IMG/VR virus record: IMGVR_UViG_2565956731_000001
Direction: 5' to 3' (one strand)
DNA length: 37,002 nt
Source: a virus
Taxonomy: Duplodnaviria; Heunggongvirae; Uroviricota; Caudoviricetes
The stretch's first letter is position 1, and each line of letters opens with the position of its first letter. Below, one piece after another: positions 2,908-37,002 of this stretch. The notes beneath the pieces were generated by a model that searched no databases, was not told the origin of the DNA, and was given only the letters and a program-made list of their open reading frames with translations. The position numbers and the translations under genes are program-made.

Positions 2908-2914
2908 GGTGCTT

Positions 2915-3709: not shown

Positions 3710-3720
3710 GAGATCCACTA

Positions 3721-3948
3721 ATGGCTGATGCAATGGATCTCGTACAGCAGCGCGTTGAAGAAGAACGCCAACGCCATATCCGTGCTGCCCGTGCCAAAAC
3801 GCCGGGCGTGTCCCGCGTGCTTTGCATTGATTGTGAAGCGCCAATTCCGCCAGCACGCCGCCGTGCCATTCCGGGTGTGCAGCTTTGCATTACCTGCCAG
3901 GAAATCGCAGAGCTGAAAGGCAAACATTACAACGGAGGTGCTGTATGA
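3721..3948 (+). CDS. TraR/DksA-type zinc-finger protein (P2 orf82-like)
   Basis: CxxC...CxxC pairs (CIDC, CITC) in a 75-aa protein; AGGAG RBS. Confidence 0.6.
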   Translation: MADAMDLVQQRVEEERQRHIRAARAKTPGVSRVLCIDCEAPIPPARRRAIPGVQLCITCQEIAELKGKHYNGGAV

Positions 3949-7365: not shown

Positions 7366-7554
7366 ATGCAGGACTATTTTTTGGAGTCTTTGAAGCTCCA
7401 GCGCATTGATTTTTTTCTTAAGCTTGTAGCGGCTAGTGAGTGTAGTGATGAAGAGAAGGGGCTGGCTCTGCAGTGGGTATCTGAATTGACTGATGAACTC
7501 ATGGCAAAAATCAGAACCCACGAATACAACCGCTCAATGGATGTCATCAGTTGA
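7366..7554 (+). CDS. Small SOS-controlled protein (possible N-terminal part of a Tum-like antirepressor)
   Basis: ATG 7366 with AGGAGG RBS immediately downstream of the LexA box. Confidence 0.5.
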   Translation: MQDYFLESLKLQRIDFFLKLVAASECSDEEKGLALQWVSELTDELMAKIRTHEYNRSMDVIS

Positions 7555-7564
7555 GGTGACTTTT

Positions 7565-7798
7565 ATGCGCATTGAAATAATGATCGATAAAGAGCAGAAG
7601 ATTAGCCAGTCTACCCTGGACGCCCTTGAATCCGAGCTTTACCGCAATCTGCGCCCCCTGTATCCCAAAACGGTAATTCGCATTCGCAAAGGTAGCTCTA
7701 ACGGTGTGGAACTAACCGGACTGCAACTGGACGAAGAAAGAAAACAAGTGATGAAAATTATGCAGAAGGTGTGGGAAGACGACAGCTGGCTGCATTAA
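7565..7798 (+). CDS. DinI-family protein (Tum-like antirepressor domain / SOS modulator)
   Basis: Translation MRIEIMIDK...KVWEDDSWLH aligns by eye with E. coli DinI (MRIEV...QETWESADDWF); ATG 7565 after GAGGTGA. Confidence 0.65.
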   Translation: MRIEIMIDKEQKISQSTLDALESELYRNLRPLYPKTVIRIRKGSSNGVELTGLQLDEERKQVMKIMQKVWEDDSWLH

Positions 7799-8212: not shown

Positions 8213-9295
8213 ATGATAAACGTTACAAACGAAATGCTCATTGATGTTGTCAGTGATGCTCTTACCGGGAAGAGGGAAAGTCTCCTCATGCGGTTGCGGA
8301 TTATGGCAAAAAAACTAAAAAAAGAATCTCCTGAATTAGCGGGTAAATTAGAAGATTTACTTATTAATACAGGTGGCGCAATTGCAGTCGAAAGGGCTAA
8401 TCCAGTTGTTCCTAAAATAACACCTGTTGATGCGGATACAAGACAAAAGCTGCTAGTTGAAACATATCCTGTGGTCATTGATGTTGAACCTGTTTGGCCA
8501 ACAAAAACTGATGTTCAACTGAATCGATTTGTGGCTGAGTGGGAAATGAAAGAACGCCTTTATAAAGAAGGGTTGCATCCGTCCAAATCTCTTCTTATGG
8601 GAGGACCACCCGGTGTGGGGAAGACTTTGGCTGCAAAGTGGCTCGCTTTTAAACTCGATATGCCATTGTTAACATTAGATCTCGCAAGTGTAATGAGTAG
8701 CTACTTGGGGAAAACGGGTAATAATATTAAGGCAGTCCTCAATTATGCTTCGTCATTCCCTTGTGTACTGCTTCTTGACGAATTTGATGCGATTGCTAAA
8801 AAAAGGGATGATGCAACAGATGTTGGAGAACTAAAAAGATTAGTTACAGTATTATTGCAAGCAATTGATGAATGGCCAAATACGTCTGTTCTTATAGCAG
8901 CAACTAACCATGCGGAGCTGCTTGATCCTGCTGCATGGAGAAGATTCGATCGAGTTATTGATTTTGAATATCCAACACAAGACCTAATGAGAAGATATCT
9001 CTGTTCTAAAAATATTGGAGATAGCTTATCGTACTATATTGCTACAAAACTCGAAAAAGTTTCATATGCAGTTCTTGAGAGAGCTATAAATCAAGCTAAA
9101 AGAAATGCCATTATAGAAGATATTCCTTTAAGTTCAGCTTTAATTGATGAGTTGTTAGATGGCGTGTCACTTGATGATGTTATAAAAAACATGTCAAACA
9201 ACAATGTATCACAAAGAAAAATCGCTTTAGATTTGGGGATTTCAAGGTCACAAGTACGTAAGGTTTTGACGGTTGAGGATGAAGACAATGAATGA
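8213..9295 (+). CDS. AAA+ ATPase (classic AAA clade), cargo gene
   Basis: Walker A GGPPGVGKT, Walker B LLLDEFD, sensor/Arg region ATNH...RRFD; AT-rich by eye; RBS AAGGGTGG before ATG. Confidence 0.85.
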   Translation: MINVTNEMLIDVVSDALTGKRESLLMRLRIMAKKLKKESPELAGKLEDLLINTGGAIAVERANPVVPKITPVDADTRQKLLVETYPVVIDVEPVWPTKTDVQLNRFVAEWEMKERLYKEGLHPSKSLLMGGPPGVGKTLAAKWLAFKLDMPLLTLDLASVMSSYLGKTGNNIKAVLNYASSFPCVLLLDEFDAIAKKRDDATDVGELKRLVTVLLQAIDEWPNTSVLIAATNHAELLDPAAWRRFDRVIDFEYPTQDLMRRYLCSKNIGDSLSYYIATKLEKVSYAVLERAINQAKRNAIIEDIPLSSALIDELLDGVSLDDVIKNMSNNNVSQRKIALDLGISRSQVRKVLTVEDEDNE

Positions 9296-11480
9296 TAAAA
9301 ATATGCTTCTTGGCTATGGTGAAACACTAACTAACCCTGTTAAACTTAACAGAGGTGGAGGTGAAAAGAATAAACCTTACTCTTATTCAGAAAATAAACC
9401 AGTGATATCTGCTCAACTGGAAGAGTTGATTGAGGAAATTAATACCCTTCCATTGTTAGCAATGCCTGAAGGTAAGGCTGTAGCAAAATTTGTTTTGCAT
9501 CCGGCATTCTTAGCAAAAAGTTATTTTCCAGTAAGTCTTTTTGAGCGATTTTCCCTAGAAAGCATAGGCAGTAAGGCTGTAAAAGTAAAACCTAGAAAAG
9601 ATATTAAAAAAAGAGGGCGAAAAGAGGAATACACTACAGCGTGTATTTATGTTTCTGGCAAAAAAGAAAGTTTTCAATCATTCTTAGACTCTGTAAATCA
9701 AGATACCCTAACGAAAGGGCAGCAAAATGATTTTGTCACCTTAGAAAATATTTCAATACTGGAAGTTTCAGATAAAGTAAAAACGATTAATAGCAATGAA
9801 GTTATGAGTATTGAGGTCGCCTTACATACTCCTGATACAATTTCCTCTATTGTCGATAGTTTTGAAGTTTTTGCTTCGCAAAATGGTGCTGTTATAGATA
9901 AGGCAAGAAGTATAAAGGTTAAGGGGCTAACCTTTATGCCTATTAAGGCTAGTAAAGATGTAGCTTTAAAAGTTGCAGAGTTTTCATTTCTCAGGACTTT
10001 GAGAGAACTTCCTGAATTAAGGCTAAGTGAGCCTGTTATATCACGTTCTGTGATTCAAACATCTAACCTTAGTTTACCATCTGAAGGAGCGGTAAACCCA
10101 CACATAAAGGTTGCCATATTCGATGGTGGATTGGGGATCGATGATTTCAATCCTTGGGTAACAGAGTACACTTTCAACGGTAATGCTAGTACTAATGCAA
10201 AACTTCTTTCTCATGGACAGGATGTCACCTCTACTGTGTTATTTGGTGTTCTTGGCTCTGAAACGGAAAAATTAAGTGTTCCTTATTGTAATATTGACCA
10301 TTATCGTGTACTGGATTCTAATGTTAATAACTCAGATGTCGATCTTTTTGACGTTCTGATCCGTATTAAAAGTGTATTAGAACAAAAAAAATATGATTAT
10401 ATCAATCTGAGCTTAGGACCTAGATTACCTGTTGATGACGATGACGTGCATGTGTGGACCTCAACTCTTGAGGAGATACTTGCATCAGGAGAAACACTTT
10501 GTACTGTCGCGGTTGGAAATGATGGTCAGCTGCCTGCCAAGTTAAATCGAATTCAACCACCTGCTGATTTAGTTAATGGTCTGTCAGTAGGTGCAGCAAC
10601 CTCTTTATCTGATAGTTGGGAAAGATGTTCTTACAGTTGTATTGGTCCTGGACGAAGCCCTGGCTTTGTGAAGCCTGATGGAGTTGCATTTGGAGGACAT
10701 TCTGATGAGCCATTCCAGGTATACAGCCCTATGGTTAATGGTCTTGCCCGCACTGCGGGGACTAGCTTTTCAGCTCCATTAGTCCTGAGGCAAGCAATCG
10801 CGTTAAGTGCTTCTCTAAATTACAACATTACACCACTTACGGCTAAAGCTCTGCTTATACATCATGCGGAGAGCAATAATATCAATCGTGCTGAAGTTGG
10901 TTGGGGACGATTTCCTCATGATCTTAGTGAAGTAATATTTTGTGATGATGATGAAGTTAAAGTTATATATCAAGGTACTTTAAAACCATCACAACACATG
11001 CGAGCACCTATTCCGTTTCCAGATGTACCTATGCGTGGATGTGTAAATTTAAGAGCGACATTCTGCTTTTCCAGTCCTGTAGATGCGGAACATCCTTTGA
11101 ATTATACAAGAAGCGGTCTAGAAGTAACCATGAGAAAAGGTGTTTCAGATAGTTCCGGGTTAACGTTTCCTCTTTTTAATCTAAAAAATGTTTATGCAGA
11201 TGAAAATGAGCAACGTGTTGATGCACATAAATGGGAGACTACGTTAAGAAGTGAACACAAATTTAAACCGAATGAGCTGACAAACCCATGCTTTGATATT
11301 ATCTACTATGGTAGAGACTGTGGTATGCCTATTGATGTTGACGAGTTAGAAGAACTACCATATGTTCTTGTCGTGACTTTATCTGCTGAAGAAATGCCGG
11401 ATTTATATAACCTAATTAGGCAGAAATATCAAACCTTACAGCCTATCCAAGTTCAACAGCAAATTATGTTACGTACTTAA
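9288..11480 (+). CDS. Subtilisin-like serine peptidase (S8 family) with N-terminal domain of unknown function, cargo gene
   Basis: Catalytic triad motifs in D-H-S order: VAIFDGGLG, SHGQDVTST, GTSFSAPLV; start overlaps the ATPase stop by 8 bp (alternative ATG 9279). Confidence 0.8.
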   Translation: MNDKNMLLGYGETLTNPVKLNRGGGEKNKPYSYSENKPVISAQLEELIEEINTLPLLAMPEGKAVAKFVLHPAFLAKSYFPVSLFERFSLESIGSKAVKVKPRKDIKKRGRKEEYTTACIYVSGKKESFQSFLDSVNQDTLTKGQQNDFVTLENISILEVSDKVKTINSNEVMSIEVALHTPDTISSIVDSFEVFASQNGAVIDKARSIKVKGLTFMPIKASKDVALKVAEFSFLRTLRELPELRLSEPVISRSVIQTSNLSLPSEGAVNPHIKVAIFDGGLGIDDFNPWVTEYTFNGNASTNAKLLSHGQDVTSTVLFGVLGSETEKLSVPYCNIDHYRVLDSNVNNSDVDLFDVLIRIKSVLEQKKYDYINLSLGPRLPVDDDDVHVWTSTLEEILASGETLCTVAVGNDGQLPAKLNRIQPPADLVNGLSVGAATSLSDSWERCSYSCIGPGRSPGFVKPDGVAFGGHSDEPFQVYSPMVNGLARTAGTSFSAPLVLRQAIALSASLNYNITPLTAKALLIHHAESNNINRAEVGWGRFPHDLSEVIFCDDDEVKVIYQGTLKPSQHMRAPIPFPDVPMRGCVNLRATFCFSSPVDAEHPLNYTRSGLEVTMRKGVSDSSGLTFPLFNLKNVYADENEQRVDAHKWETTLRSEHKFKPNELTNPCFDIIYYGRDCGMPIDVDELEELPYVLVVTLSAEEMPDLYNLIRQKYQTLQPIQVQQQIMLRT

Positions 11481-17134: not shown

Positions 17135-17599
17135 ATGAAGTTTGTTGCGCCAGAACAGGCACCGGAACAGGCGGAAATCATCAGAAATACGCCGTTCTGG
17201 CCTGATGTGGACCTGTCGGAGTTTCGCAGTGTCATGCGCACTGACGGCACGGTGACGCAGCCGCGTTTAAAGCAGGTTGCGCTGTCGGCAATTTCGGAGG
17301 TCAACGCAGAGCTGTATGAGTTTCGCAGACGCCAGCAGATGCTGGGATATTCCTCGCTGGCAGAGGTTCCGGCTGAACAGCTGGACGGCAAAAGTGAGCG
17401 CATTCATCACTATTTCAACGCGGTTTACTGCTGGGCACGCGCCATGCTCAACGAGCGTTATCAGGACTATGACGCCACGGCATCCGGTGTGAAGCGGGGC
17501 GAGGAACTGGCGGAAGCAAGCGGTGATTTGTGGCGTGATGCCCGCTGGGCCATCAGCCGGGTGCAGGATGCGCCGCACTGCACAGTGGAGCTTATCTGA
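17135..17599 (+). CDS. L: Head completion/stabilisation protein gpL
   Basis: ATG 17135 after CAGGAGAAAG; P2 L-like size and position. Confidence 0.8.
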   Translation: MKFVAPEQAPEQAEIIRNTPFWPDVDLSEFRSVMRTDGTVTQPRLKQVALSAISEVNAELYEFRRRQQMLGYSSLAEVPAEQLDGKSERIHHYFNAVYCWARAMLNERYQDYDATASGVKRGEELAEASGDLWRDARWAISRVQDAPHCTVELI

Positions 17600-17802
17600 T
17601 GAAAGTGCGTGCGTATCAGTATGACACGGTGGACGCGCTTTGCTGGCGTCATTACGGGCGCACGCAGGGTGTCACGGAGCAGGTACTGAAGGCAAATCCG
17701 GGGCTTGCCGAATTTGGCCCTTTTTTACCTCACGGGCTGCAGGTGGAGCTGCCGGACATTCCGACCACCACCACCGTGCAGACCGTCCAGCTATGGGACT
17801 GA
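17599..17802 (+). CDS. X: Tail protein gpX
   Basis: 67 aa, exactly P2 X length; start overlaps L stop. Confidence 0.8.
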   Translation: MKVRAYQYDTVDALCWRHYGRTQGVTEQVLKANPGLAEFGPFLPHGLQVELPDIPTTTTVQTVQLWD

Positions 17803-17805
17803 ATT

Positions 17806-18021
17806 ATGACGCTTGAGCGAATCAGCGCCTTTATCACGTATTGCATCGCCGTTGTGCTGGCCTGGCTGGGCGATTTGTCCATCAAGGATGCCTCAACGCT
17901 GGGTGGCCTGATGATTGGTGTGCTGATGCTGGCTATCAACTGGTACTACAAACACAAAGCCTACCAGCTTCTGCGCGACGGGCAGATCTCGCGGGAGGAC
18001 TATGAATCCATCAATCGTTAA
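17806..18021 (+). CDS. Holin
   Basis: 71-aa protein with two hydrophobic helices and charged C-terminus, immediately upstream of the endolysin. Confidence 0.7.
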   Translation: MTLERISAFITYCIAVVLAWLGDLSIKDASTLGGLMIGVLMLAINWYYKHKAYQLLRDGQISREDYESINR

Positions 18022-18514
18022 ACGCTGCCTTGTCGGGGCCGTGCTGGCTATTGCTGCAACGCTGCCGGGGTTTCAGCAACTTCACACCTCCGTGGAGGGG
18101 CTGAAACTGATTGCCGATTACGAAGGCTGTCGTCTGCAGCCGTATCAGTGCAGCGCGGGTGTCTGGACCGACGGCATTGGTAATACGTCGGGCGTCATTC
18201 CCGGCAAAACTATTACGGAACGACAGGCAGCAGAAGGGCTGATCTCCAACGTGCTGCGTGTGGAGCGGGCGCTGGAAAGGTGTGTGAAGCAACAGCCGCC
18301 GCAGAAGGTGTATGACGCTACGGTGTCGTTTGCCTTCAACGTGGGGACGGGCAATGCCTGCAGTTCCACGTTGGTTAAATTGCTCAACCAGCGGCGCTGG
18401 GCGGATGCGTGCCGACAGTTGCCGCGCTGGGTGTATGTAAAAGGTGTGTTTAATCAGGGGCTGGATAACCGCCGTGCGCGGGAGATGGCCTGGTGTTTAC
18501 AGGGAGCAAACTGA
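18002..18514 (+). CDS. K: Endolysin (lysozyme), probable SAR-type
   Basis: E-8aa-D-5aa-T catalytic motif (DYEGCRLQPYQCSAGVWTDGIGNT); hydrophobic N-terminus. Confidence 0.85.
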   Translation: MNPSIVKRCLVGAVLAIAATLPGFQQLHTSVEGLKLIADYEGCRLQPYQCSAGVWTDGIGNTSGVIPGKTITERQAAEGLISNVLRVERALERCVKQQPPQKVYDATVSFAFNVGTGNACSSTLVKLLNQRRWADACRQLPRWVYVKGVFNQGLDNRRAREMAWCLQGAN

Positions 18515-18515
18515 A

Positions 18516-18893
18516 ATGAAAAAGAAATTAATCAGCGGACTGTTTCTGATGTTATGGATGGCGCTGTTAATCGCAGCAATGGTGTATCCGCAGGGGATTT
18601 TTCCGGTACTGGCAGCGTCCGGCGTTTGGGTAGCCTGTTTGCTGACATGGGCGGTAATTCCGGTAGCACTGGCTGCGTTAATTAAGAATGGCCCGCTCTG
18701 GCAGGAGTTAAGGGCATCTTTGCTGAAGACAATTACCCGAAAAGAAAACGTATTTATCAGTTGGGTGATGCGATTGCTGATTGTCGTAAGTCTCGCCTGG
18801 ACGGGGTGGGCTATTACCCTGGTCTTTTATCTGCTGACCGTTATTGCCTTCTGGATCACCCGTAATCAGATGGCGCAACAGGTAGCAGCATGA
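18516..18893 (+). CDS. LysA-like membrane protein (lysis timing / antiholin-like)
   Basis: 125 aa with about 4 TM helices; ATG 18516 after AGGGAGC; position as P2 lysA. Confidence 0.6.
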   Translation: MKKKLISGLFLMLWMALLIAAMVYPQGIFPVLAASGVWVACLLTWAVIPVALAALIKNGPLWQELRASLLKTITRKENVFISWVMRLLIVVSLAWTGWAITLVFYLLTVIAFWITRNQMAQQVAA

Positions 18894-19318
18894 ACCGGTT
18901 GCTGCTGGTTGTGCTGGCGTTATTACTGGCGGCGCTGGGCTGGCAGACGTGGCGGCTGGCTGATGCCAGCCAGACCATTAGCACGCAGGCAGACGAGCTG
19001 CAGAGCAAAAGTCAGGCACTGGCAAAGAGCAACAGCCAGCTTATTAGCCTGTCCATTCTGACTGAAACCAATAACCGGGAGCAGGCGCGGCTCTATGCCG
19101 AAGCAGAACAGACCAGCGCGCTGCTGAGACAACGACAACACCGGATCGAGGAACTGAAACGTGAGAACGAGGATTTACGCCGCTGGGCTGATACTCCTTT
19201 GCCTGCTGACATTATCCGGCTGCGGGAACGTTCGGCACTCACCGGAGGTGCAGCTTATCGTCAGTGGTTGTCCGCGAGTGACACCGTGTCGGCTGGATCA
19301 GGCAGCGCCGCGCACTAA
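18890..19318 (+). CDS. lysB: LysB, Rz-like inner-membrane spanin
   Basis: N-terminal TM helix then coiled-coil Q/E/R-rich region; position after lysA. Confidence 0.75.
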   Translation: MNRLLLVVLALLLAALGWQTWRLADASQTISTQADELQSKSQALAKSNSQLISLSILTETNNREQARLYAEAEQTSALLRQRQHRIEELKRENEDLRRWADTPLPADIIRLRERSALTGGAAYRQWLSASDTVSAGSGSAAH

Positions 19319-19451
19319 CGGTGATCTGAACGCGTTGTTGGATGAAACGGAGGCCGCCTGGGCGGTCTGTGCAGACAAAGTGGACATGATTATTGCGTGT
19401 CAGGAGCGAAACAGTGAACAAACCACAATCCCTGCGCCACGCCCTCAATAA
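19161..19451 (+). CDS. lysC: LysC, Rz1-like outer-membrane lipoprotein spanin
   Basis: Starts inside lysB in another frame (GTG after GAGGA), lipobox LTLSGC, Pro-rich C-terminus. Confidence 0.65.
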   Translation: MRTRIYAAGLILLCLLTLSGCGNVRHSPEVQLIVSGCPRVTPCRLDQAAPRTNGDLNALLDETEAAWAVCADKVDMIIACQERNSEQTTIPAPRPQ

Positions 19452-19845
19452 AGCTGTGCCTTATGTCCGCAATAACCCGGACAAACTGCATCTGTTTGTG
19501 GATAACGGTTCGCTGGTTGCCACGGGGGCCAGCTCCATGTCATGGGAGTACCGTTACACCCTGAACGCGGTGATTGAGGATTTCAGCGGCGACCAGAATC
19601 TGCTGATGGCCCCGGTTTTGCTGTGGCTGAGGGATAACCAGCCCGATGCAATCAATAACCCGGTGTTACGGGAAAAGTTATTCACCTTTGAGGTGGATAT
19701 TTTGCGCAACGATGTCTGTGATATCAGCCTTAACCTGCAACTGACGGAACGTGTGCTGGTCAGCACTGACGGCACTGTGTCCAGCGTTGAAGCTGTAGCG
19801 GAACCCGATGAACCTGAAGAAATGTGGACGGTGAAACGAGGCTGA
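19414..19845 (+). CDS. R: Tail completion protein gpR
   Basis: Aligns by eye with P2 R (FVDNGS..., TERV...); GTG 19414 after CAGGAGCG (the track's TTG at 19393 is less likely). Confidence 0.75.
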   Translation: MNKPQSLRHALNKAVPYVRNNPDKLHLFVDNGSLVATGASSMSWEYRYTLNAVIEDFSGDQNLLMAPVLLWLRDNQPDAINNPVLREKLFTFEVDILRNDVCDISLNLQLTERVLVSTDGTVSSVEAVAEPDEPEEMWTVKRG

Positions 19846-20297: not shown

Positions 20298-20327
20298 AAA
20301 TGGCAGATGCTCTGCCATTTTTTTATT
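20298..20327. terminator. Bidirectional Rho-independent terminator between S and the cargo gene
   Basis: AATGGCAGA-TGC-TCTGCCATT hairpin with flanking A-run and T-run. Confidence 0.6.
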
Positions 20328-21079
20328 TAGATACTGAGATTTTTTTTACATAATAGTATAAATTCACAGTACATGTTATAGATTTTAGTCGCACATCCGT
20401 TAGCTTTTTTTATGGTTTCTATCTTTTCAGGGGGGAGGCTCAATAAGGCAATCTCTCTGTCGCTGAGCATTGAAATAAACTCGCTGCTGCCTAAATACCC
20501 GGAGTTGCAGGCTAAAAAATAATTAAAGTTAGTTAACTCTTTGTGTAGTTCGTTAGATTTTATTTCTATTTCATTATCATGAAAATGATGTATGGCCTTT
20601 CCCCATTCATGGCAGTATGTTGTCATGTCTTTAAGGTTTGAGTCATGAAATCTATTGCCAAAGTCATGGCTTTTTAGAAAGTCTATTGAGTTTGAATCTG
20701 GTGGTAATAATTTTATAAACTCTTTATATAGATTAATGTCAGAGTTCCTTTGTCTTTCTTTCTTTTCTCTGTTTTCTTTAATTTTAATACTGTCAAAGAA
20801 CCATTCTGGCACTTTACTTAATAAGTTATAGGTTAACCCCAAAGCAATTAGAGTGATGGCTACCATCGTGCTTGGATTACCATTATCTATTTTTATTATA
20901 TCAATATCTGCATTGAATTTTTTATTATATATATCAATTATAAAATTAAGTGCCATGAGATAATATGGAATTGGTAGCGCAATTATGCTTAGCCCAGTTA
21001 TAACTAAAGCCCAAGTTATTTTATTACTAAACTCAGGAAATATTACATTGATTATTTTTTTAACAATATACTTTTTCAT
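20327..21079 (-). CDS. Membrane protein of unknown function, cargo at the S/V (P2 orf30-equivalent) locus
   Basis: 250 aa, very AT-rich by eye; two N-terminal TM helices; K/E/N/D-rich C-terminal soluble domain; antisense to flanking late genes. Confidence 0.7.
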   Translation of the reverse strand: MKKYIVKKIINVIFPEFSNKITWALVITGLSIIALPIPYYLMALNFIIDIYNKKFNADIDIIKIDNGNPSTMVAITLIALGLTYNLLSKVPEWFFDSIKIKENREKKERQRNSDINLYKEFIKLLPPDSNSIDFLKSHDFGNRFHDSNLKDMTTYCHEWGKAIHHFHDNEIEIKSNELHKELTNFNYFLACNSGYLGSSEFISMLSDREIALLSLPPEKIETIKKANGCATKIYNMYCEFILLCKKNLSI

Positions 21080-23001: not shown

Positions 23002-23599
23002 TCTGCTGCCACCGGGTTCAACTTCACTGGAGCGCCGACTGGCGCAGACCTGTAGCGGGATTTCTGATCTGCAGGTGCCGCTGTGTGACTTGTGGAATCC
23101 AACGACCTGTCCGATCAGTTTCCTGCCTTATCTCGCCTGGGCGTTCTCTGTGGATCGCTGGGACGAGGGCTGGACGGAAAGCGTCAAACGACAGGTGGTG
23201 AAGGATGCTTTTTATATTCATCAGCATAAAGGAACCACCAGTGCCGTGCGGCGGGTGGTGGAGCCGTTCGGCTTCCTGATCCGCATTATTGAGTGGTGGC
23301 AGACCGGAGAGGCACCGGGCACGTTTCGTCTGGATATCGGCGTGCAGGACCAGGGCATCACTGAAGATACCTATCTGGAACTTGAGCGACTGATAAGCGA
23401 TGCCAAACCATGTAGCCGTCACATGATCGGCATGTCCATCAACCTGCAGACCAGCGGCCCGCATTGGGTGGGAGCCGCCAGCTATCTTGGCGAAGAAATC
23501 ACGATCTATCCGTATATCAACGAAACAATTATTTCCGGCGGCACCGCGCATGAAGGCGGGGCGGTCCATGTTATTGACACAATGAGAGTGAATCCATGA
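22994..23599 (+). CDS. I: Baseplate protein gpI
   Basis: 201 aa in P2 I position. Confidence 0.8.
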
Positions 23600-25017
23600 G
23601 CACAAAATTTTATACCCTGCTGACGGATATTGGCGCGGCGAAACTTGCCTGCGCCGCCGCGCTCGGTGTGCCGCTAAAAATTACCCATATGGCGGTGGGC
23701 GATGGCGGCGGAGTATTGCCGACGCCGGACGCAAAGCAGACTGCACTGGTAAATGAGAAACGCCGGGCTGCTCTGAATATGCTCTATATCGACCCGCAGA
23801 ACAGCAGCCAGATTATTGCTGAACAGGTGATCCCTGAAAACGAGGGCGGTTGGTGGATACGTGAAGTGGGCCTGTTTGATGAGTCAGGGGCATTGATTGC
23901 CGTGGGGAACTGCCCGGAAAGCTATAAACCGCAACTGGCTGAAGGCAGCGGGCGCACCCAGACCGTGCGCATGGTGCTGATTACCAGCAGCACGGACAAT
24001 ATCACCCTGAAAATCGACCCTGCTGTAGTGCTGGCAACCCGCAAGTATGTGGATGACAAGGCACTGGAGCTGAAGGTGTACGCGGATGATCAGATGGCAA
24101 AACATCTTGCCGCACCGGACCCGCATTCACAGTATGCACCCAAAGAAAGTCCGACGTTTACCGGGACACCCAAAGCGCCAACGCCAGCAGCAGGGAATAA
24201 CACTACGCAGATTGCGACCACCGAGTTTGTTCAGGCGGCTCTGACGGCTCTTATTAATGGTGCGCCAGCCACGCTGGACACGCTGAAAGAAATAGCCGCA
24301 GCCATTAACAATGATCCGAAATTCAGTACCACCATTAACAATGCGCTGGCACTGAAAGCGCCGCTGTCGAGTCCGGCACTCACCGGAACGCCAACCGCAC
24401 CTACTGCGGCACAGTCGGTCAACAATACACAAATTGCCACCACGGCATTTGTGAAATCGGCGATTGCGGCAATGGTGGGTTCTGCACCTGGGGCACTGGA
24501 TACACTGAACGAACTGGCGGCGGCGCTGGGGAATGACCCGAACTTTGCCACGACAATGCTTAATGCACTGGCAGGTAAACAACCGCTGGACAATACGCTG
24601 ACTAATTTGAGTGGAAAGGATGTAACTGGTCTTCTCACATACCTTGGTTTGGGAGAAGCGGCAAAACGGAATGTAGGAACAGGGGAAAATCAGATACCGG
24701 ACATGACCTCTTTTGCCAGTGGTGATGGATGGATGAAATTACCCAACGGGAAAATCCTGCAATATGGTCGTGGTGCGATTACGCCGACATTATCGACGCA
24801 AACAATGAGAATTACATTCAGCATCCCTTTTCCTAAAGAAGTGGACTGCGCCATGCTTACCCATTCTGGTGATGGTGGTGCGCCTTTAGGCGCTGGACGG
24901 GGATTCGTGATGACTGCAGAAGGTCCAACACTAACCGGTTTTAATTCCGCTTACAGAACTGCATCAACCAGCTCCACAGTATCGATGAATTACAGTTGGT
25001 GGGCTGTTGGTGAGTAA
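23596..25017 (+). CDS. H: Tail fibre protein gpH (C-terminal part encoded inside the invertible segment, current orientation)
   Basis: Conserved P2 H-like N-terminus; repeated collar motifs (TQIATTEFV / TQIATTAFV); crossover repeat inside the gene at 24644-24677. Confidence 0.85.
24644..24677. repeat. Left inverted repeat (recombination site) of the tail-fibre invertible segment
   Basis: 34-bp sequence TTGGTTTGGGAGAAGCGGCAAAACGGAATGTAGG present in perfect inverse orientation at 26191-26224. Confidence 0.8.
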
Positions 25018-25028
25018 TTTTATTCAGG

Positions 25029-25481
25029 GTGATTTATATGAACGAATATGTTTATAGCGCAAGGCATAATGCTTTTTTCCCTGTGGATATGATTGATAAA
25101 TATAAATCAGAGGGATGGGATTTATCAGACGCAAAGGAAGTAAATCAAAATATTATCAGTGAGTTTATGGCTGAACCGCCACAAGGAAAAATCCGTATTG
25201 CCGGAGATGATGGGCTGCCTGCGTGGGCAGATATTCCTCCACCCACGCATGAAGAGCTTATTGAAATTACTGAATCAGAAAAACAGCTACTAATTAACCA
25301 GGCTAACGAATACATGAACAGTAAGCAATGGCCTGGCAAAGCAGCTATTGGTCGTCTGAAAGGTGAGGAACTGGCGCAATATAATTTGTGGCTGGATTAC
25401 CTGGACGCACTGGAACTGGTGGATACCTCCAGTGCTCCAGATATTGAATGGCCTACACCTCCGGTAACTCAGGCCAGCTAA
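25029..25481 (+). CDS. Tail fibre assembly chaperone (Tfa, expressed orientation)
   Basis: 150 aa immediately after H; N-terminus MIYMNEY... typical of Tfa/gpG. Confidence 0.75.
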   Translation: MIYMNEYVYSARHNAFFPVDMIDKYKSEGWDLSDAKEVNQNIISEFMAEPPQGKIRIAGDDGLPAWADIPPPTHEELIEITESEKQLLINQANEYMNSKQWPGKAAIGRLKGEELAQYNLWLDYLDALELVDTSSAPDIEWPTPPVTQAS

Positions 25482-25848
25482 TCTCAGGAGCCGTCGAAGT
25501 GTCGACGGCTTTTACTTCTTTTTTGTAGTCCATCCAGGCAGATAGTTTTTCTTTATCTGTACTGCTGATATCACCAAGCATTAATTCCACCCGCCAGTCA
25601 GCTGTGACATTATCGGCATGAGCAAGTAACTGCATTCGCTGATTTTCAGCACGTGCGACATAATCAATCGCCGGAGATTTCAGTACCGGTAAACCATTTT
25701 CATCTGACGTGATTAATTTACCCCCTTCCTGCTGTCCGGCAATTAATTCATTGTATAAGTCTGTACTTATCTCAACAATGTCAGCAGGCATGTCGCTGTT
25801 TATACCATCAAAGAAAAAACCATTAGTCGATTTTGAGAAATAAATCAT
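25453..25848 (-). CDS. Alternative tail fibre assembly chaperone (silent orientation)
   Basis: Minus-strand ORF with Tfa-like N-terminus MIYFSKSTNGFF; convergent with and overlapping the expressed tfa. Confidence 0.65.
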   Translation of the reverse strand: MIYFSKSTNGFFFDGINSDMPADIVEISTDLYNELIAGQQEGGKLITSDENGLPVLKSPAIDYVARAENQRMQLLAHADNVTADWRVELMLGDISSTDKEKLSAWMDYKKEVKAVDTSTAPEISWPELPEV

Positions 25849-25856
25849 AGATATAC

Positions 25857-26190
25857 CTATACACCGATTGCTACCCAAAAACAGGACCTTTCATATTTGA
25901 CAATTTCTCCCTGAGATATACCGCCAACAATTATATAGAACTGTGATTTGCTGATATCAGAACAGTTCGCTATGCCCATTGCAGATATACCAGCCACCGA
26001 CGTTGTATGTGGCACAGCCAACAGCGCAAGTGAACGATTTGGGAATGTTACCGGGTAAGTCACCGTATAGTTTGATGCTCCACTGACAATACCCCACTGA
26101 ATAATCAGACCTGAAGGAAGTTTTTGAAAACCCGTTGATGAAAGTGAACTGGCAAACGCCGCCATATCCGGAATTTGGTTTTGCCCGTTA
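25857..26190 (-). CDS. Alternative tail-fibre C-terminal coding segment (silent cassette, no own start)
   Basis: Minus-strand frame begins with [19 protein letters not shown] matching the H crossover region, then diverges. Confidence 0.65.
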
Positions 26191-26224
26191 CCTACATTCC
26201 GTTTTGCCGCTTCTCCCAAACCAA
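26191..26224. repeat. Right inverted repeat of the invertible segment
   Basis: Perfect reverse complement of 24644-24677. Confidence 0.8.
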
Positions 26225-26291
26225 CGTTTATGAAAATGCAGAGATAATGGCTAACTGGCATCATCCCCGGTTTTTATTCAGGGGGATGATC

Positions 26292-26858
26292 ATGCTTATT
26301 GGCTATGTACGCGTGTCAACAAATGACCAGAACACCGATTTGCAACGTAATGCACTGAACTGCGCGGGATGTGAGCGGATTTTTGAGGACAAAATCAGTG
26401 GCACAAAGTCCGACAGACCAGGGCTGAAAAAACTGCTCAGGACACTAACGGCAGGAGACACTCTGGTTGTCTGGAAGCTGGACAGGTTGGGGCGCAGTAT
26501 GCGGCATCTTGTTACGCTGATAGAAGAGTTGCGCCAGCGTGGTGTGAATTTCCGAAGCCTGACTGACAGTATTGATACCAGTACCCCAATGGGCCGTTTC
26601 TTTTTTCATGTCATGGGTGCCCTGGCTGAAATGGAACGCGAACTGATAGTTGAACGTACCAGGGCGGGGCTGGCTGCAGCTCGTGCTAAAGGCAGAGTAG
26701 GTGGACGCCGTCCTAAGTTGACCACCGAACAGTGGGCACAGATTGGACGTTTACTCGAGGCCGGAGAATCAAGACAGCGTATTGCACTGATTTTTGATGT
26801 GGGTGTTTCCACAATTTATAGAAAATTTCCGGCAAATAAGAGCAATGAATCCCCCTGA
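26292..26858 (+). CDS. Serine-recombinase DNA invertase (Pin/Gin/Hin/Cin family)
   Basis: N-terminus MLIGYVRVSTNDQ with catalytic Ser; C-terminal HTH; aligns by eye with e14 Pin; ATG 26292 after AGGGGGATG; directly adjacent to the invertible segment. Confidence 0.9.
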   Translation: MLIGYVRVSTNDQNTDLQRNALNCAGCERIFEDKISGTKSDRPGLKKLLRTLTAGDTLVVWKLDRLGRSMRHLVTLIEELRQRGVNFRSLTDSIDTSTPMGRFFFHVMGALAEMERELIVERTRAGLAAARAKGRVGGRRPKLTTEQWAQIGRLLEAGESRQRIALIFDVGVSTIYRKFPANKSNESP

Positions 26859-26906: not shown

Positions 26907-26924
26907 TGTATGAATAACGGTACA
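26907..26924. promoter_or_regulatory. Ogr-type late promoter dyad (TGT-N12-ACA) upstream of FI
   Basis: TGTATGAATAACGGTACA about 75 bp upstream of FI. Confidence 0.5.
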
Positions 26925-32741: not shown

Positions 32742-33838
32742 ATTTCAGCTCTGAACTGCTTAACAAAGGCAACAAAACTCCCGCATTCAGCATCAGTATT
32801 GAGGGCAGGGATATCACTACTGTGCTGGATAACCGTCTGATGAGTCTGACGTTGACGGACAATCGGGGCTTTGACGCGGACCAGCTTGATCTGGAGCTGG
32901 ACGACGCCGACGGAAAAATCGTGCTGCCGCGCCGTGGTGCGGTCATTACGCTGGCGCTGGGCTGGAAGGGGCAGCCGCTTTTCCCGAAAGGGACATTCAC
33001 GGTGGACGAGATTGAACACACTGGCGCACCGGACCGCCTGACTATCCGGGCGCGAAGTGCTGATTTTCGGGAAACGCTGAATACCCGCCGTGAAAAATCG
33101 TGGCATAAGACCACCGTCGGGGAAGTGGTGAAGGAAATAGCCGCGCGGCACAAGCTGAAGATGGCACTGGGTAAAGACCTGTCGGATAAGCCCGTGGAGC
33201 ATATAGACCAGACTAATGAGAGTGACGGCAGTTTTCTGATGCGGCTGGCGCGACAGTACGGTGCCATCGCGTCGGTGAAAAATGGCAATCTGTTATTCAT
33301 CCGGCAGGGGCAGGGCAAAAGCGCCACTGGTAAACCTCTGCCAGTGATCACTATCACACGCAAGGACGGCGACAGTCACCGATTTACCCTGGCAGATCGC
33401 GGAGCCTACACGGGCGTAATTGCCAGCTGGTTGCATACCCGCGAACCAGCGAAGAAAGAAAGCACCATGGTGAAGCGTAAGCGCAGAACTAAGAAGCAGA
33501 AGAAAGAGCCAGAAGCGAAGCAGGGCGATTACCTGGTGGGTACGGATGAAAACGTGCTGGTACTTAATCGCACTTATGCCAACCGGAGCAACGCCGAACG
33601 AGCGGCGAAAATGCAGTGGGAACGCCTGCAACGCGGCGTTGCGTCATTTTCGCTACAACTGGCAGAAGGGCGGGCAGATCTCTACACGGAAATGCCTGTG
33701 AAGGTCAGTGGTTTTAAACAGCCGATAGATGATGCGGAATGGACCATTACGACTCTGACGCATACCGTCAGCCCGGATAACGGTTTTACGACCAGTCTGG
33801 AGCTTGAAGTGAGGATTGATGATTTCGAAATGGAATAA
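32738..33838 (+). CDS. D: Tail protein gpD (late gene D)
   Basis: 366 aa, P2 D-like; GTG start after GGGAGGG. Confidence 0.85.
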   Translation: MNFSSELLNKGNKTPAFSISIEGRDITTVLDNRLMSLTLTDNRGFDADQLDLELDDADGKIVLPRRGAVITLALGWKGQPLFPKGTFTVDEIEHTGAPDRLTIRARSADFRETLNTRREKSWHKTTVGEVVKEIAARHKLKMALGKDLSDKPVEHIDQTNESDGSFLMRLARQYGAIASVKNGNLLFIRQGQGKSATGKPLPVITITRKDGDSHRFTLADRGAYTGVIASWLHTREPAKKESTMVKRKRRTKKQKKEPEAKQGDYLVGTDENVLVLNRTYANRSNAERAAKMQWERLQRGVASFSLQLAEGRADLYTEMPVKVSGFKQPIDDAEWTITTLTHTVSPDNGFTTSLELEVRIDDFEME

Positions 33839-33928
33839 TTCTTCGCAATGGAGAACTTTTAAGTTTGCAAAATGGAATAATGCGGTATCATTATTGTGAA
33901 TTTAGCAAAAATGGGGAGAACTCGAAAA

Positions 33929-34147
33929 ATGATGATTTGCCCACTGTGTGGAAGTGCCGCCCATACTCGCAGCAGTTTTCAGGTATCTTCATTGACCAAA
34001 GAGCGTTACAACCAGTGCCAGAACATTAACTGCAGCCATACTTTTGTTACCCATGAAACTTTTGTTCGTTCGATTGCAACGCCAAAAGAGTCAAATCCGG
34101 TTCAGCCGCATCCAATGAAATCAGGACAGGTGGCGCTCTCTCTTTGA
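33929..34147 (+). CDS. ogr: Ogr/Delta-type zinc-finger late transcription activator (186 B-like)
   Basis: 72 aa from ATG 33929; CPLCG...CQNINCSHTF zinc-binding motifs align by eye with P2 Ogr. Confidence 0.85.
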   Translation: MMICPLCGSAAHTRSSFQVSSLTKERYNQCQNINCSHTFVTHETFVRSIATPKESNPVQPHPMKSGQVALSL

Positions 34148-34170
34148 CGCTGCCGCCATTTTGTCGCCAT
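34148..34170. repeat. Right copy of 22-bp direct repeat (candidate attR core) immediately after ogr stop
   Basis: 21/22 identity with 19-40; marks the transition to host sequence. Confidence 0.4.
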
Positions 34171-34382
34171 CGTTAAAAAACAGTGCTTCTAACATCATGA
34201 TTTTAAACAGCTTAAATTTCAGGCAACAAAAAACCCATCAACCTTGAACCGAAATGGCGGGGTTGATGGGCTCCACAAAATGGGGACATCAAAGAAAAGC
34301 AGTGGCACTAATTAAGACTGATGCCCTGCGGAAAAGTTCTGCGGTTGTGCAAAAAAATTTCATTTTCAGGGCAACTTCAGTT

Positions 34383-36068
34383 TTATCCTAATCCTGGCCA
34401 TACCATGACGATGATTGTCCCTGCCAGCGTCAGCAGGACGTTGGCGATTGCATAGGTGCCCGCATAGCCCAGCGCCGGGATGTTACTGCGAGCTGTATCA
34501 CTGATGATCTCCATTGCCGGCGCGCAGGTGCGTGCGCCCATCATTGCGCCGAACAACAGTGCGCGGTTCATTCGCAATACATAAGCACCGAACAAGAAAC
34601 AGATAACCACTGGCACAAGACTGACAATCAATCCGGCAATCAACATCTGACCGCCAATCGCGCCCAGGCCGTTATTAATACCGCTACCGGCGCTCAGACC
34701 AACGCCTGCCATAAACACCATTAAGCCGAACTCTTTCACCATGCTTAATGCACCCTGCGGAATGTAACCGAAGGTCGGGTGGTTAGCGCGCATAAATCCC
34801 AGCATAATTCCGGCGAATAACAACCCGGCAGCGTTCCCCATGCCGAAACTGAATGTGCTGAACTGGAAGGTGATCATCCCGATCATCAGCCCAATAACAA
34901 AGAAGGCGCAGAATGCCAGCAAGTCAGTGACCTGGCTGTGAATCGAGATAAAGCCGATGCGATCGGCGATGGTTTTTACGCGACGGGCATCGCCGCTGAC
35001 TTGTAAAACGTCACCTTTGTTAAGCACGACGTTGTCATCTATCGGCATCTCAATCTGGCTACGAATGACGCGGTTAAGGAAGCAACCGTGATCGGTCAAC
35101 TTCAGTTGTGCGAGACGTTTGCCCACGGCGTTATGGTTTTTAACGACCACTTCTTCAGTGACGATACGCATGTCGAGAAGGTCACGATCGAAAACTTCTT
35201 TGCCGTTACGGAAGCTGGGATCGAGTCGTGCGTGGGCGTCGGGATAGCCTACCAACGCTATTTCATCGCCCATTTGTAGCACAGCATCACCGTCTGGATT
35301 CGCCAGAATCCCGTTACGTCGAATACGTTCAATGTAGCAGCCAGTTTGTCGATAAATACCCAGTTCACGCAGATTTTTGCCGTCGGTCCAGGCCACCAGC
35401 TCCGGGCCGACGCGGTAGGCGCGGATCACCGGTAAATAAACCTTACGGTTGGCATCAGTGTCCAGGCCACGTTCGCGGGCGATTTGCTGGGCGCTGGTCT
35501 GTAAGTCCTGATGCTGCAATTTCGGCAAGTAACGCGCACCAACAATCAAACTCACCAGACCGATTAAATAGGTTAAGGCATACCCGAGGCTCAGATTATC
35601 CAGTGCCAGTGAGAGCTGCCTGCTTTCCATGCCGGAATGACGCAGTGTATCGCCAGCACCGACCAGAACCGGTGTCGACGTCATAGAGCCAGCTAACATA
35701 CCGGCCGTCAGGCCAATATCCCAGCCAAACAGCTTACCTAACCCTAAGGCGATCACCAGCGCACTGCCAACCATCACCAGTGCTAACATTAGGTAATTTT
35801 TCCCATCGCGAAAAAAAATGGAAAAAAAGTTCGGTCCGGCTTCGACCCCGACGCAGAAAATAAACAGCATAAAGCCAAGATTAAGCGCGTCGGTGTTAAT
35901 GCTGAAATGTTGTTGGCCTAATAACAGCGATACGACTAAAACGCCAATGGAATTACCCAGTTGGATCGAACCAAGTCGTAATTTCCCGAGACATAGCCCA
36001 AGCGCGAGGACCACAAATAATAACAGAATGTAATTCCCATTTAACAATTCGGCGACGTTTATATTCAC
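34383..36068 (-). CDS. ybjL: Putative transport protein YbjL (YidE/YbjL family)
   Basis: 561 aa; translation recognised as E. coli YbjL ([16 protein letters not shown]...); GTG start. Confidence 0.9.
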
Positions 36069-36337
36069 GGAGGCTAACTTCTTGTTTACTAGTAAGCTGT
36101 TGAAAGAAATGGTAATTTACGATAATGTTTTTTACCAGAATTCAGGGCGCAGATTCATTCAGCGCACCTAAACGATAGTAAAGTAACAATATATTTTACT
36201 AGTGTAATCACATTAGGTATCAACGGCTATATGAATTGCGTTGGCCTATATTAGCATGGAATGCGAAGCGGCTTTATCTTACTGAACGCCACACTGGCGA
36301 AAAATGTGTTCGATAGACGCAGTGTCAGGAGGAACGA

Positions 36338-36715
36338 GTGAAACATAAACAACGTTGGGCGGGGGCAATCTGCTGTTTTGTCCTCTTCATTGTGGTGTGT
36401 CTTTTTCTGGCGACGCACATGAAAGGCGCTTTTCGGGCTGCCGGGCATCCTGAAATCGGTTTGCTATTTTTCATTCTTCCTGGTGCAGTTGCCAGCTTCT
36501 TTTCACATCGTAGAGAAGTCCTGAAACCTCTGTTTGGCGCAATGCTGGCGGCACCCTGTTCGATGCTCATTATGCGGCTGTTTTTTTCACCGACGCGCTC
36601 ATTCTGGCAAGAGCTGGCATGGTTATTAAGTGCGGTGTTCTGGTGTGCGCTGGGGGCATTGTGTTTCTTATTTATCAGTAGTTTGTTTAAACCACAGCAC
36701 AGAAAAAATCAATAA
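36338..36715 (+). CDS. ybjM: Inner membrane protein YbjM
   Basis: 125 aa hydrophobic protein, GTG start after AGGAGG; conserved ybjL-ybjM-grxA synteny. Confidence 0.85.
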   Translation: MKHKQRWAGAICCFVLFIVVCLFLATHMKGAFRAAGHPEIGLLFFILPGAVASFFSHRREVLKPLFGAMLAAPCSMLIMRLFFSPTRSFWQELAWLLSAVFWCALGALCFLFISSLFKPQHRKNQ

Positions 36716-36736
36716 AGCCCTCAACGCGAGGGCTTG
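36714..36736. terminator. Bidirectional terminator between ybjM and grxA
   Basis: AGCCCTC-AACGC-GAGGGCT hairpin between convergent genes. Confidence 0.6.
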
Positions 36737-36744
36737 TCAGACGA

Positions 36745-37002
36745 TCAGGCGTCCAGATTCTCTTTCACCCATGCAGCAAAATCGGTATAGCCGCCGATAT
36801 GTTGCTGATCGACAAAAATCTGCGGCACGGTTTCTACGGGTTTACCTGCCTTTTGTTGTAGATCTTCTTTAGTGATCCCTTCCGCACGAATATCTACATA
36901 CTGATACTGGAAATCATCGCGCTCATTGCTCAATTTCTCGGCCAGATCTTTTGCACGCACACAGTAAGGGCAACCCGGACGACCAAAAATAACGGTTTGC
37001 AT
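36745..37002 (-). CDS. grxA: Glutaredoxin 1
   Basis: 85 aa with CPYC active site; matches E. coli GrxA (MQTVIFGRPGCPYCVRAKDLAEKL...). Confidence 0.95.
   Translation of the reverse strand: MQTVIFGRPGCPYCVRAKDLAEKLSNERDDFQYQYVDIRAEGITKEDLQQKAGKPVETVPQIFVDQQHIGGYTDFAAWVKENLDA

Follow-up and report, generated by a model that had tools for sequence, protein, structure and literature searches.

Invertible tail-fibre segments are a well-described kind of switch: they are common, they are annotated in public records, and they belong to a kind that has been shown experimentally to flip. In phage Mu, the 3-kb G segment and its invertase Gin are arranged in the order Sc-Sv-U / U'-Sv'-gin. Phage P1 has a counterpart in its C segment with the invertase Cin. 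The P segment of the Escherichia coli element e14, with the invertase PinE, consists of a fibre gene, a Tfa gene, a reversed second Tfa gene (Tfa') and a reversed fibre C-terminus, and the invertase gene lies outside the segment. Among P2-like phages and prophages, Fels-2 Fin is another invertible tail-fibre module. For e14, flipping of the repeat TTGGTTTGGGAGAAGG by PinE, PinQ and PinR is reported, as is a receptor-blocking defence through the P segment that involves PinQ and StfE2 (PMC12529663). Inversion in the P2-like prophages of EPEC (E2348/69) has been demonstrated by sequencing and, at a locus with four variants, also by PCR (PMC4272514). According to a 2024 preprint, the Z/fun hotspot of P2-like phages often contains a DNA invertase together with inverted genes beside it.

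The locus described here lies in a stretch of viral DNA of 37,002 nucleotides (IMG/VR record IMGVR_UViG_2565956731_000001), which is referred to as the window. It is very probably a two-state host-range switch of the G-segment type, carried by a P2-like (Peduoviridae) E. coli prophage, where it occupies the Z/fun slot. The features on which this reading is based are collected in Table 1.

Table 1. Features of the invertible tail-fibre module and its flanks (positions in the window).
Feature	Position	Strand	Basis or remark
Tail-fibre gene H, present form, 473 aa	23596-25017	+	ORF; Pfam; PHROG tail-fibre families
H constant part	23596-24643	+	codons 1-349
Left 26-bp crossover site	24632-24657	+	TTCTCACATACC-TT-GGTTTGGGAGAA; core dinucleotide 24644-24645
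Left arm of perfect 34-bp repeat	24644-24677	.	core dinucleotide, inner half-site and 20 nt of shared coding sequence
H expressed variable C-terminus (tip 1)	24646-25017	+	
Tfa, tail-fibre assembly chaperone for the expressed tip, 147 aa	25038-25481	+	PF02413 Caudo_TAP, E = 2e-31; phrog_188
Tfa', alternative chaperone, 131 aa, silent in the present orientation	25453-25848	-	PF02413 Caudo_TAP, E = 2e-24
Terminator-like hairpin with T-run, just past the Tfa stop, inside the Tfa' coding sequence	25486-25513	+	
Silent alternative H C-terminus (tip 2)	25857-26224	-	Gp53-like_C; in-silico inversion; variable part 25857-26222
Right arm of perfect 34-bp repeat	26191-26224	.	
Right 26-bp crossover site	26211-26236	+	TTCTCCCAAACC-AA-CGTTTATGAAAA; core dinucleotide 26223-26224
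Serine DNA invertase, Pin/Gin/Cin/Hin subfamily, 188 aa	26292-26858	+	outside the invertible segment
TGT-N12-ACA element	26907-26924	+	94 nt upstream of the FI start codon (27001); read from sequence

The segment is bounded by a perfect inverted repeat of 34 bp, the left arm (TTGGTTTGGGAGAAGCGGCAAAACGGAATGTAGG) being the exact reverse complement of the right arm, and extension by one base fails on either side. By arithmetic, the number of such repeats expected in a random 37-kb sequence is about 2e-12, and this one is the sole perfect inverted repeat of at least 20 nt in the window. A preliminary description of the locus had reported perfect 34-bp repeats at these positions and a segment of about 1.5 kb between them; on recounting, the repeat was found to be perfect and of full length, with 1513 bp between the arms and 1581 bp when the arms are included. 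The start that it gave for the module, 24644, is correct as the boundary of the repeat but cuts off the left outer half-site of the crossover site, which begins at 24632. Beyond the perfect repeat, an imperfect similarity extends over 89 nt at 82% identity (24632-24720 against 26148-26236).

Both crossover sites are imperfect palindromes that reach 12 bp outside the perfect repeat (24632-24643 and 26225-26236), and they stand in inverted orientation with the same 2-bp core, TT/AA. The left site matches the layout of gix as taken from the Mu record (TTATCCAAAACC-TC-GGTTTACAGGAA), and two sites of this layout are present in the window. Mu and the module described here thus share sites of 26 bp with the layout TTxTCxxAxACC-NN-GGTTTxxGAxAA, and the Mu repeat is also 34 bp long; in Mu, however, the perfect repeat takes in both half-sites, while the two sites of the present module have unlike outer half-sites. 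The right site agrees at 26 of 26 positions with the e14 site adjoining pinE in E. coli K-12, and the e14 repeat corresponds to the first 15 nt of the repeat found here. No third crossover site within 8 mismatches of either site, and no additional inner half-site, was found in the window. A multi-state, shufflon-like system, such as the EPEC locus in which three repeats give four states, was rejected on this ground, and the presence of two sites only therefore implies two states only.

The N-terminus of H carries the Phage_tail_fib domain (PF12571, residues 1-150, E = 2e-64) and its C-terminus the Gp53-like_C domain (PF21882, residues 381-472, E = 2e-11), which is also found in the silent tip (E = 2e-15). 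When the segment was inverted in silico, the constant part of H became fused in frame to the minus-strand C-terminus, yielding a protein of 471 aa that has residues 1-361 in common with the present form (349 residues of the constant part and 12 encoded by the repeat). This result agrees with the proposal, made in the preliminary description, that the crossover lies inside H and that the minus strand carries an alternative C-terminus. A local alignment of the two tips gave 61% identity over 59 residues, located mostly in their shared start. Matches of the tips to solved structures were weak, and included a 'putative tail fiber protein' (4MTM, E = 7e-5, tip 2) and the short tail fibre gp92 (E = 0.02-0.03, both tips); a search of NCBIfam with the fibre and chaperone proteins returned no match. 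The silent-tip ORF, which has its own ATG at 26264, and the Tfa' ORF are both uninterrupted, and the silent tip is 98% identical to the corresponding ORF of the Escherichia phage Cartapus. In two relatives with H in this orientation (Combat13F7 and F637), PGAP labels the gene a pseudogene, but the Combat13F7 ORF translates intact into 473 aa and the label is an annotation artefact.

Each tip has its own set of close relatives among other phages, and for both tips those at 96% identity or above come from E. coli and Citrobacter phages only. A backbone that is common to Klebsiella phages had prompted the idea of a host range crossing genera, with E. coli on one side and Klebsiella on the other. 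It was not supported, because the one Klebsiella module read, that of phage KP12, lists different cassette genes, because the homology to Klebsiella-phage backbones ends at about 24657, and because the close tip matches have the limited distribution just given.

After each variable tip lies its own Tfa chaperone, so that the module is made up of two convergent cassettes, one on each strand, as had been described from the outset, and both chaperones are of the Caudo_TAP family. The two Tfa genes overlap at their 3' ends by 29 nt and their products are 27% identical; Tfa' is 100% identical to the Cartapus tail-fibre assembly protein gp21. The hairpin that follows the Tfa stop codon has a predicted fold of -18 kcal/mol (z = -2.8) and is a putative terminator, comparable to the terminator of the P2 V operon after gene G. 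A search for a minus-strand terminator after Tfa' found none.

The invertase gene begins with an ATG 68 nt beyond the last base of the right repeat, the distance originally given, and its assignment as a Pin-like serine invertase holds: the gene is intact, and its product is 86% identical to PinE of e14, 75% to Mu Gin and 99% to the invertase of Cartapus. The protein is full length and consists of a Resolvase domain (PF00239, residues 3-135, E = 3e-53) and an HTH_7 domain (PF02796, residues 138-181, E = 1e-15), and it matches the Gin structure 3UJ3 with E = 1e-92, as against 3e-34 for gamma-delta resolvase; with NCBIfam, it scored under the cut-off of every equivalog model. The catalytic Ser9 and the DRLGRS motif were read directly from the sequence, and the stretches MLIGYVRVS(9)TNDQ and KLDRLGRS align column for column with Gin, including the D-R-x-x-R motif (the serine is S9 in Gin and S10 in Hin). 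In Hin, the residues Q151, R154 and L155 and the basic residues 47, 48 and 51, which are uniquely conserved in Fis/enhancer-dependent invertases, are contacts to Fis and the enhancer (PMC3798978). Their equivalents in the window invertase are Q150, R153, L154, K46, K47 and R50, the one-residue offset being taken from an alignment with the Hin DNA-binding domain, and suggest that the enzyme is Fis-dependent. A recombinational enhancer acting in cis, with two Fis sites, would be expected in the 5' part of the invertase gene. Fis-like 15-mers of the form G-N13-C occur at gene positions 97 and 131 here, at 97 and 131 in pinE, and at 94 and 129 in gin, but so degenerate a motif carries no weight as evidence for an enhancer.

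The order of genes is that of the e14 P segment, in which the convergent Tfa genes also overlap by 29 nt. The two systems differ in their surroundings, e14 being a defective lambdoid element with stfE annotated as a pseudogene, whereas the module described here is part of an apparently complete P2-like backbone. Against the e14 StfP C-terminus, the tips are 34-50% identical over 58-105 aligned residues, and StfE gave no meaningful match; Tfa is 55% identical to e14 TfaP, and the other three chaperone pairings reach 35-36%. With the Mu G segment, the module shares both its logic and its order, but is shorter at 1.58 kb against 3 kb. The preliminary description regarded the tail-fibre region as a mosaic with cassettes of the Mu/P1/e14 type, a view that stands for the architecture, the invertase and the e14/Mu-type crossover site, but not for the tips, which are Gp53-like_C and bear a weak likeness to Mu S/S' (25-45% over 22-68 aligned residues). 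In phage Cartapus, the same module is found at the same position, with DNA 97% identical over 82% of the region and genes annotated as tail fibre, tail fibre assembly and 'Mu Gin invertase homolog'; it differs by having another left half-cassette, with breaks in homology at 24724 and 25278. Klebsiella phage KP12 and K56-43-un have cassettes other than those found here.

The segment had been predicted to be invertible, and among public E. coli genomes near-identical modules are indeed found in either orientation, with one pair coming from a single strain. Single-piece matches over the full length, at 93.7-98.8% identity, have the orientation of the window in eight E. coli genomes and the flipped orientation in five. 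Two records of strain Combat13F7, the chromosome and a circular one of 45 kb, agree throughout 8702 bp apart from a block of 1582 bp, which is an exact reverse complement and has a perfect repeat of only 19 bp at its ends. The isolates F637 and F1267 display the same pattern, with an exact reverse-complement block in an otherwise identical 8695 bp. These exact-inversion pairs are 94-98% identical to the module described here, and relatives found in both orientations have invertases identical at 182-183 of 185 residues. The window itself, as a single assembled sequence, displays one orientation.

In the mechanism proposed here, the invertase, a small serine recombinase of the Fis-dependent type, would bind the two inverted 26-bp sites as dimers, cut at the shared core dinucleotide and rotate the 1.58-kb segment. 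As the segment now lies, the late transcript of the V operon would encode H with its constant part and tip 1, together with Tfa; inversion would attach the constant part, still in frame, to tip 2, with Tfa' coming next. A population of lysogens may thereby release two kinds of virion that carry different receptor-binding tips. It is probably this particular invertase that catalyses the reaction, the segment presumably flips in this particular strain, and the two tips are predicted to differ in host range. H and the minus-strand 'gp53-like' ORF are best recorded as alternative versions of a single tail-fibre gene, both tips are to be considered when the host range of the prophage is predicted, and structural-variant calls at the locus should be expected to reflect phase variation and not misassembly. 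Beyond correct annotation, the locus has little significance.

A module with the anatomy of a switch could be a relic that no longer flips in this strain, either with the invertase unexpressed or with the enhancer lost, in which case the minus-strand cassette would be a silent remnant. The single orientation of the window is compatible with such a relic, a search ahead of the invertase gene gave no sigma-70-like promoter, and the enhancer scan yielded degenerate Fis-like 15-mers only. Nonetheless, the invertase ORF is unbroken and shares 99% identity with its counterpart in an isolated phage, the two crossover sites are intact and agree in their core dinucleotides, the silent ORFs are free of interruptions, and relatives with invertases of the near-identity given above are found in both orientations, once within a single strain. 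Resident Pin enzymes could moreover flip the segment in trans, a possibility that arises because the site matches that of e14. A frozen module is consequently considered very unlikely. It is harder still to credit inversion to RecA-dependent homologous recombination between the 34-bp repeats, with the neighbouring recombinase gene being incidental. A perfect repeat of 34 bp is close to the minimum length for RecA action, which would suit this explanation, yet the Combat13F7 block is exactly inverted with its perfect repeat of 19 bp, and the first bases of the repeat described here are exactly the core dinucleotide of a 26-bp site identical to that of e14. That e14 site is flipped by Pin enzymes in experiments (PMC12529663). 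The invertase gene also adjoins the segment in each of the five relatives for which the annotation was consulted (Cartapus, Combat13F7, F637/F1267, K56-43-un and Klebsiella phage KP12), although their cassettes differ, and the other matches likewise have recombinase genes listed with them, all of which makes the RecA route extremely improbable.

A different objection concerns the purpose of the inversion and not its cause, in that its main selected role may lie in the lysogen, where it would alter the fibre fragment or chimera that is made and block receptors against other phages. The e14 P segment, for which a defence of this sort is reported (PMC12529663), has a crossover site identical to the site described here, and the silent tip is contained in an ORF with an ATG of its own. 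The ATG-extended ORF across the right site is, however, largely dictated by the sequence of the site (IFINVGLGE, also present in e14 and Cartapus), and expression of the silent copy is putative only. H is an essential virion gene under the late operon, and the prophage looks complete, with 96% identity to isolated phages over most of its length. A principal role in the lysogen is thus very unlikely, and a switch of virion host range remains the preferred reading.

Because the e14 P segment has an identical crossover site, and because the Pin enzymes are interchangeable, the invertase of this prophage might flip e14-type segments elsewhere in the chromosome, and resident PinE, PinQ or PinR might flip the segment described here. 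This idea is put forward tentatively and is more doubtful than not. If true, cross-flipping would link several prophages in their tail-fibre states, and it could toggle a receptor-blocking defence of the StfE2 type in the lysogen.

With regard to the backbone, the late genes follow the P2 order V-W-J-I-H-G...FI-FII-E-T-U-D-ogr, and a GPA replication protein (PF05840), CI repressor domains and an integrase are also encoded; Ogr and D are annotated in a strain that is 99.9% identical to the window over 33800-37002. Over 76% of its first 25 kb, the window shares 96% identity with isolates of the Peduoviridae type. The genes and this similarity are in line with the earlier assignment to a P2-like prophage, which is apparently complete. 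The accompanying statement that P2 itself lacks the module is likewise correct, since at this position reference P2 has H-G-terminator-fun(Z)-pF-FI, that is, fun(Z) in place of the module and no invertase. Homology to related phages and prophages breaks on the left at about 80 nt or less inside the left site (24643-24724) and on the right at the right site (26210, mapped in K56-43-un). The module illustrates the exchange of receptor-binding cassettes among P2-like phages, with breakpoints that fall at the left site or a little way inside it, at the right site and within Tfa. Downstream of the invertase gene lies the TGT-N12-ACA element, which has the activator motif of P2 late promoters. Its position matches that of the annotated P2 pF activator site, which lies 97 nt before the P2 FI ATG; it is likely to be the Ogr-activator site of pF, a late promoter of the P2 type, and shows where the inserted module ends on its downstream side.

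An exact inverted repeat of 34 nt, as claimed in the preliminary description, was found again on recount: positions 24644-24677 are the reverse complement of 26191-26224, extension by even one base is impossible, and among perfect inverted repeats of at least 20 nt it is the only one in the 37,002-bp window. The chance expectation for such a repeat in random sequence of this length is about 2e-12 (N²/2 × 4⁻³⁴). Imperfect similarity runs on into the segment, giving 89-nt arms at 82% (24632-24720 and 26148-26236). The first base of the perfect repeat is the start of the central dinucleotide of a 26-bp Gin/Hin/Cin/Pin-type crossover site, and the real sites therefore extend 12 bp past the repeat on each side; the repeat had thus been rightly taken as a recombination element, with its outer limits set too narrowly. 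The remainder of the repeat, beyond the half-site, is coding sequence common to both fibre tips. The site beside pinE of e14 in E. coli K-12 is identical to the right site at 26/26 positions, and the e14 repeat TTGGTTTGGGAGAAGG, inverted experimentally by PinE, PinQ and PinR (PMC12529663), is identical to the opening 15 nt of the window's repeat. No third crossover site is present in the window, and the system is therefore a two-state one.

Features of the predicted invertible module and of other loci in the window
Feature	Position	Strand	Remarks
IetA, AAA ATPase	8213-9295	+	PADLOC E = 7e-84
IetS, subtilase	9273-11480	+	E = 5e-48
DinI-like protein gene	7493-7798	+	PF06183, E = 1e-22; 3' of replication gene A
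H	23596-25017	+	473 aa; P2-type tail-collar fibre N-terminal domain and Gp53-like C-terminal domain (tip 1)
Left crossover site	24632-24657		TTCTCACATACC-TT-GGTTTGGGAGAA
Tfa	25038-25481	+	Caudo_TAP chaperone, directly after H
Tfa'	25453-25848	-	second chaperone
Terminator-like hairpin	25486-25513		3' of Tfa
Tip 2	25857-26224	-	second Gp53-like C-terminus, without its own N-terminal fibre part
Right crossover site, inward reading	26236-26211		TTTTCATAAACG-TT-GGTTTGGGAGAA
Invertase	26292-26858		188 aa; resolvase/HTH_7 protein
TGT-N12-ACA element	26907-26924		94 nt 5' of FI start
Mu gix, for comparison	from Mu record		TTATCCAAAACC-TC-GGTTTACAGGAA

Each strand of the segment carries a fibre C-terminus and a chaperone, as had been proposed. 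Inversion of 24644-26224 in silico fuses H codons 1-349 in frame with the minus-strand C-terminus to give a 471-aa protein, so that inversion would exchange the tip together with its own chaperone. Both variable parts begin with the same 12 residues, which are encoded by the repeat, and diverge thereafter; Tfa and Tfa' are only 27% identical. Genes are arranged as in the G segment of Mu and the P segment of e14. A small correction to the suggested Mu/P1/e14-type mosaic is that the two tips are of a Gp53-like kind, not Mu-like.

The invertase start codon lies 68 nt beyond the right repeat, and the predicted Pin-like assignment is borne out by 86% identity to PinE, with 75% to Mu Gin; the enzyme of the isolated phage Cartapus is 99% identical. 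Between Mu and e14, it is e14 that has the closest enzyme and site. The protein matches Gin crystal structures at E = 1e-92, compared with 3e-34 for gamma-delta resolvase, and has Ser9 and the DRLGRS motif. Residues uniquely conserved in Fis/enhancer-dependent invertases (Q151, R154, L155 and basic residues at 47, 48 and 51 of Hin; McLean et al., PMC3798978) have counterparts in Q150, R153, L154, K46, K47 and R50. Fis-like 15-mers, a motif too loose to serve as evidence of an enhancer, occur at positions 97 and 131 of the invertase gene, and at the same or nearby positions in pinE (97, 131) and gin (94, 129).

The window itself holds a single orientation. A 2.7-kb query in this orientation gave full-length single-piece matches in 8 complete E. 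coli genomes, and the query flipped in silico gave such matches in 5 other records (93.7-98.8% identity). In strain Combat13F7, the chromosomal prophage and a circular record of 45 kb belonging to the same assembly are identical over 8,702 bp barring a 1,582-bp block, which is an exact reverse complement between the two (the accessions compared being NZ_CP019246.1, L002, and NZ_CP019245.1, L003/L006); the perfect repeat there is just 19 bp and begins at the same TT core. Isolates F637 and F1267, 97.6% identical to the window, have the same flipped-block pattern over 8,695 bp and the same 34-bp repeat. Between these relatives and the window, the invertase differs at 2-3 of 185 positions. Two O157:H7 isolates, AC-3 and AC-5, match at equal coordinates (17502-19724) in opposite query orientations. 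As comparisons of deposited sequences, the Combat13F7 and F637/F1267 pairs are decisive for the existence of both orientations among relatives, and constitute strong indirect evidence that the module is active. The proposed fibre-switch mechanism is very probably correct.

The circular Combat13F7 'plasmid' record duplicates at least 8.7 kb of the chromosomal P2-like prophage with the fibre segment flipped, and probably represents a phage genome, excised or replicating, that was caught in the assembly. In two relatives with the window's orientation, H has been split by PGAP into an incomplete pseudogene and a 'gp53-like' CDS of its own (L002 2397-3818; L004, isolate F637, 2392-3813). The Combat13F7 copy translates intact (473 aa), which identifies the pseudogene call as an annotation artefact of a phase-variable gene.

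Homology to relatives breaks at the crossover sites, with Klebsiella and E. coli phage matches stopping at 24643-24658. In strain K56-43-un this prophage likewise sits at the ybjL site, with other cassettes, homology being lost at 24705 and regained at 26210. Of the two half-cassettes, Cartapus has only the right one in common with the window (Tfa' 100%, tip 2 98%), with break points at 24724 and 25278. The sets of close relatives are separate for each tip: pro483, ECO95 and Citrobacter phage Omnitron for tip 1, Cartapus and vB_EcoM-613R3 for tip 2. Because Cartapus homology resumes at 25278, within Tfa, the conserved WPxxP-coding Tfa end may be a joint for half-cassette exchange.

The convergent 3' ends of Tfa and Tfa' overlap by exactly 29 nt (25453-25481), unlike U and U' of Mu, which do not overlap. 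An overlap of the same length recurs elsewhere despite differing cassettes: in Cartapus (L001 3310-3338), Combat13F7 (L002 4255-4283), e14 (L010 1518-1546), K56-43-un (L011 3875-3903) and Klebsiella phage KP12 (L014 3127-3155). A 16-nt direct repeat, TTTTATTCAGGG(T/G)GAT, 15/16 identical, includes the ribosome-binding site just 5' of the Tfa and invertase start codons (25018-25033 and 26272-26287); with an estimated 0.2 such pairs expected by chance in the 5.5-kb region, it may reflect chance or a recombination scar.

The prophage is P2-like in its integrase, CI repressor and GPA replication protein, and in its late genes, from portal and terminase through the lysis genes and V-W-J-I-H-G to FI-FII-E-T-U-D-ogr; isolated phages of E. 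coli and Klebsiella match 76% of its first 25 kb at about 96% identity. Judged by sequence, the window is E. coli chromosome, the host flank (ybjL, ybjM, grxA) being 99.9% identical to several E. coli strains. On its right side the prophage (D, followed by ogr) adjoins this flank at 33800-37002, a junction also found, at 99.9% identity, in several strains such as K56-43-un (L011). The integrase ORF ends at window 1-3, and the left attachment site therefore lies outside the window.

That P2 itself lacks the module holds: reference P2 reads H-G-terminator-fun(Z)-pF-FI without an invertase, whereas in the window the Z/fun slot is filled by the second cassette and the invertase. Inversion has been detected in two P2-like prophages of EPEC E2348/69, with two and four variants and PCR confirmation for the latter (Goldberg et al. 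2014, PMC4272514), and according to a 2024 preprint the Z/fun hotspot of P2-like phages frequently contains a DNA invertase together with inverted genes next to it. These genes are also annotated for Cartapus, one of them as 'Mu phage Gin invertase homolog', and among 5,426 complete E. coli genomes 2,765 match part of the query. Modules of this type are therefore nothing new, and the one in the window is an ordinary example. It is conceivable, though rather unlikely, that the site identical to that of e14 allows cross-talk with e14-type segments, perhaps affecting the recently described PinQ/StfE2 anti-T2 defence (PMC12529663).

Elsewhere in the window, the plus strand carries IetAS (8213-11480), a defence system of two genes directed against phages or plasmids; it occupies the P2 hotspot that separates the portal gene from the gene A/DinI-like region. 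An AT-rich island (20327-21079, minus strand; 30-33% GC vs 55-58% in the backbone) lies between P2-like S and V, the position of P2 orf30. Its 250-aa product, with apparent N-terminal membrane helices, has no match in Pfam, PHROGs or PADLOC, and tblastn against 50,697 phage records likewise gave none; among 5.8 billion proteins only three clusters match, at 100%, 76% and 50% identity, and the 50% match comes from a Caudoviricetes MAG. The gene is an orphan moron that may encode a new defence or exclusion function.
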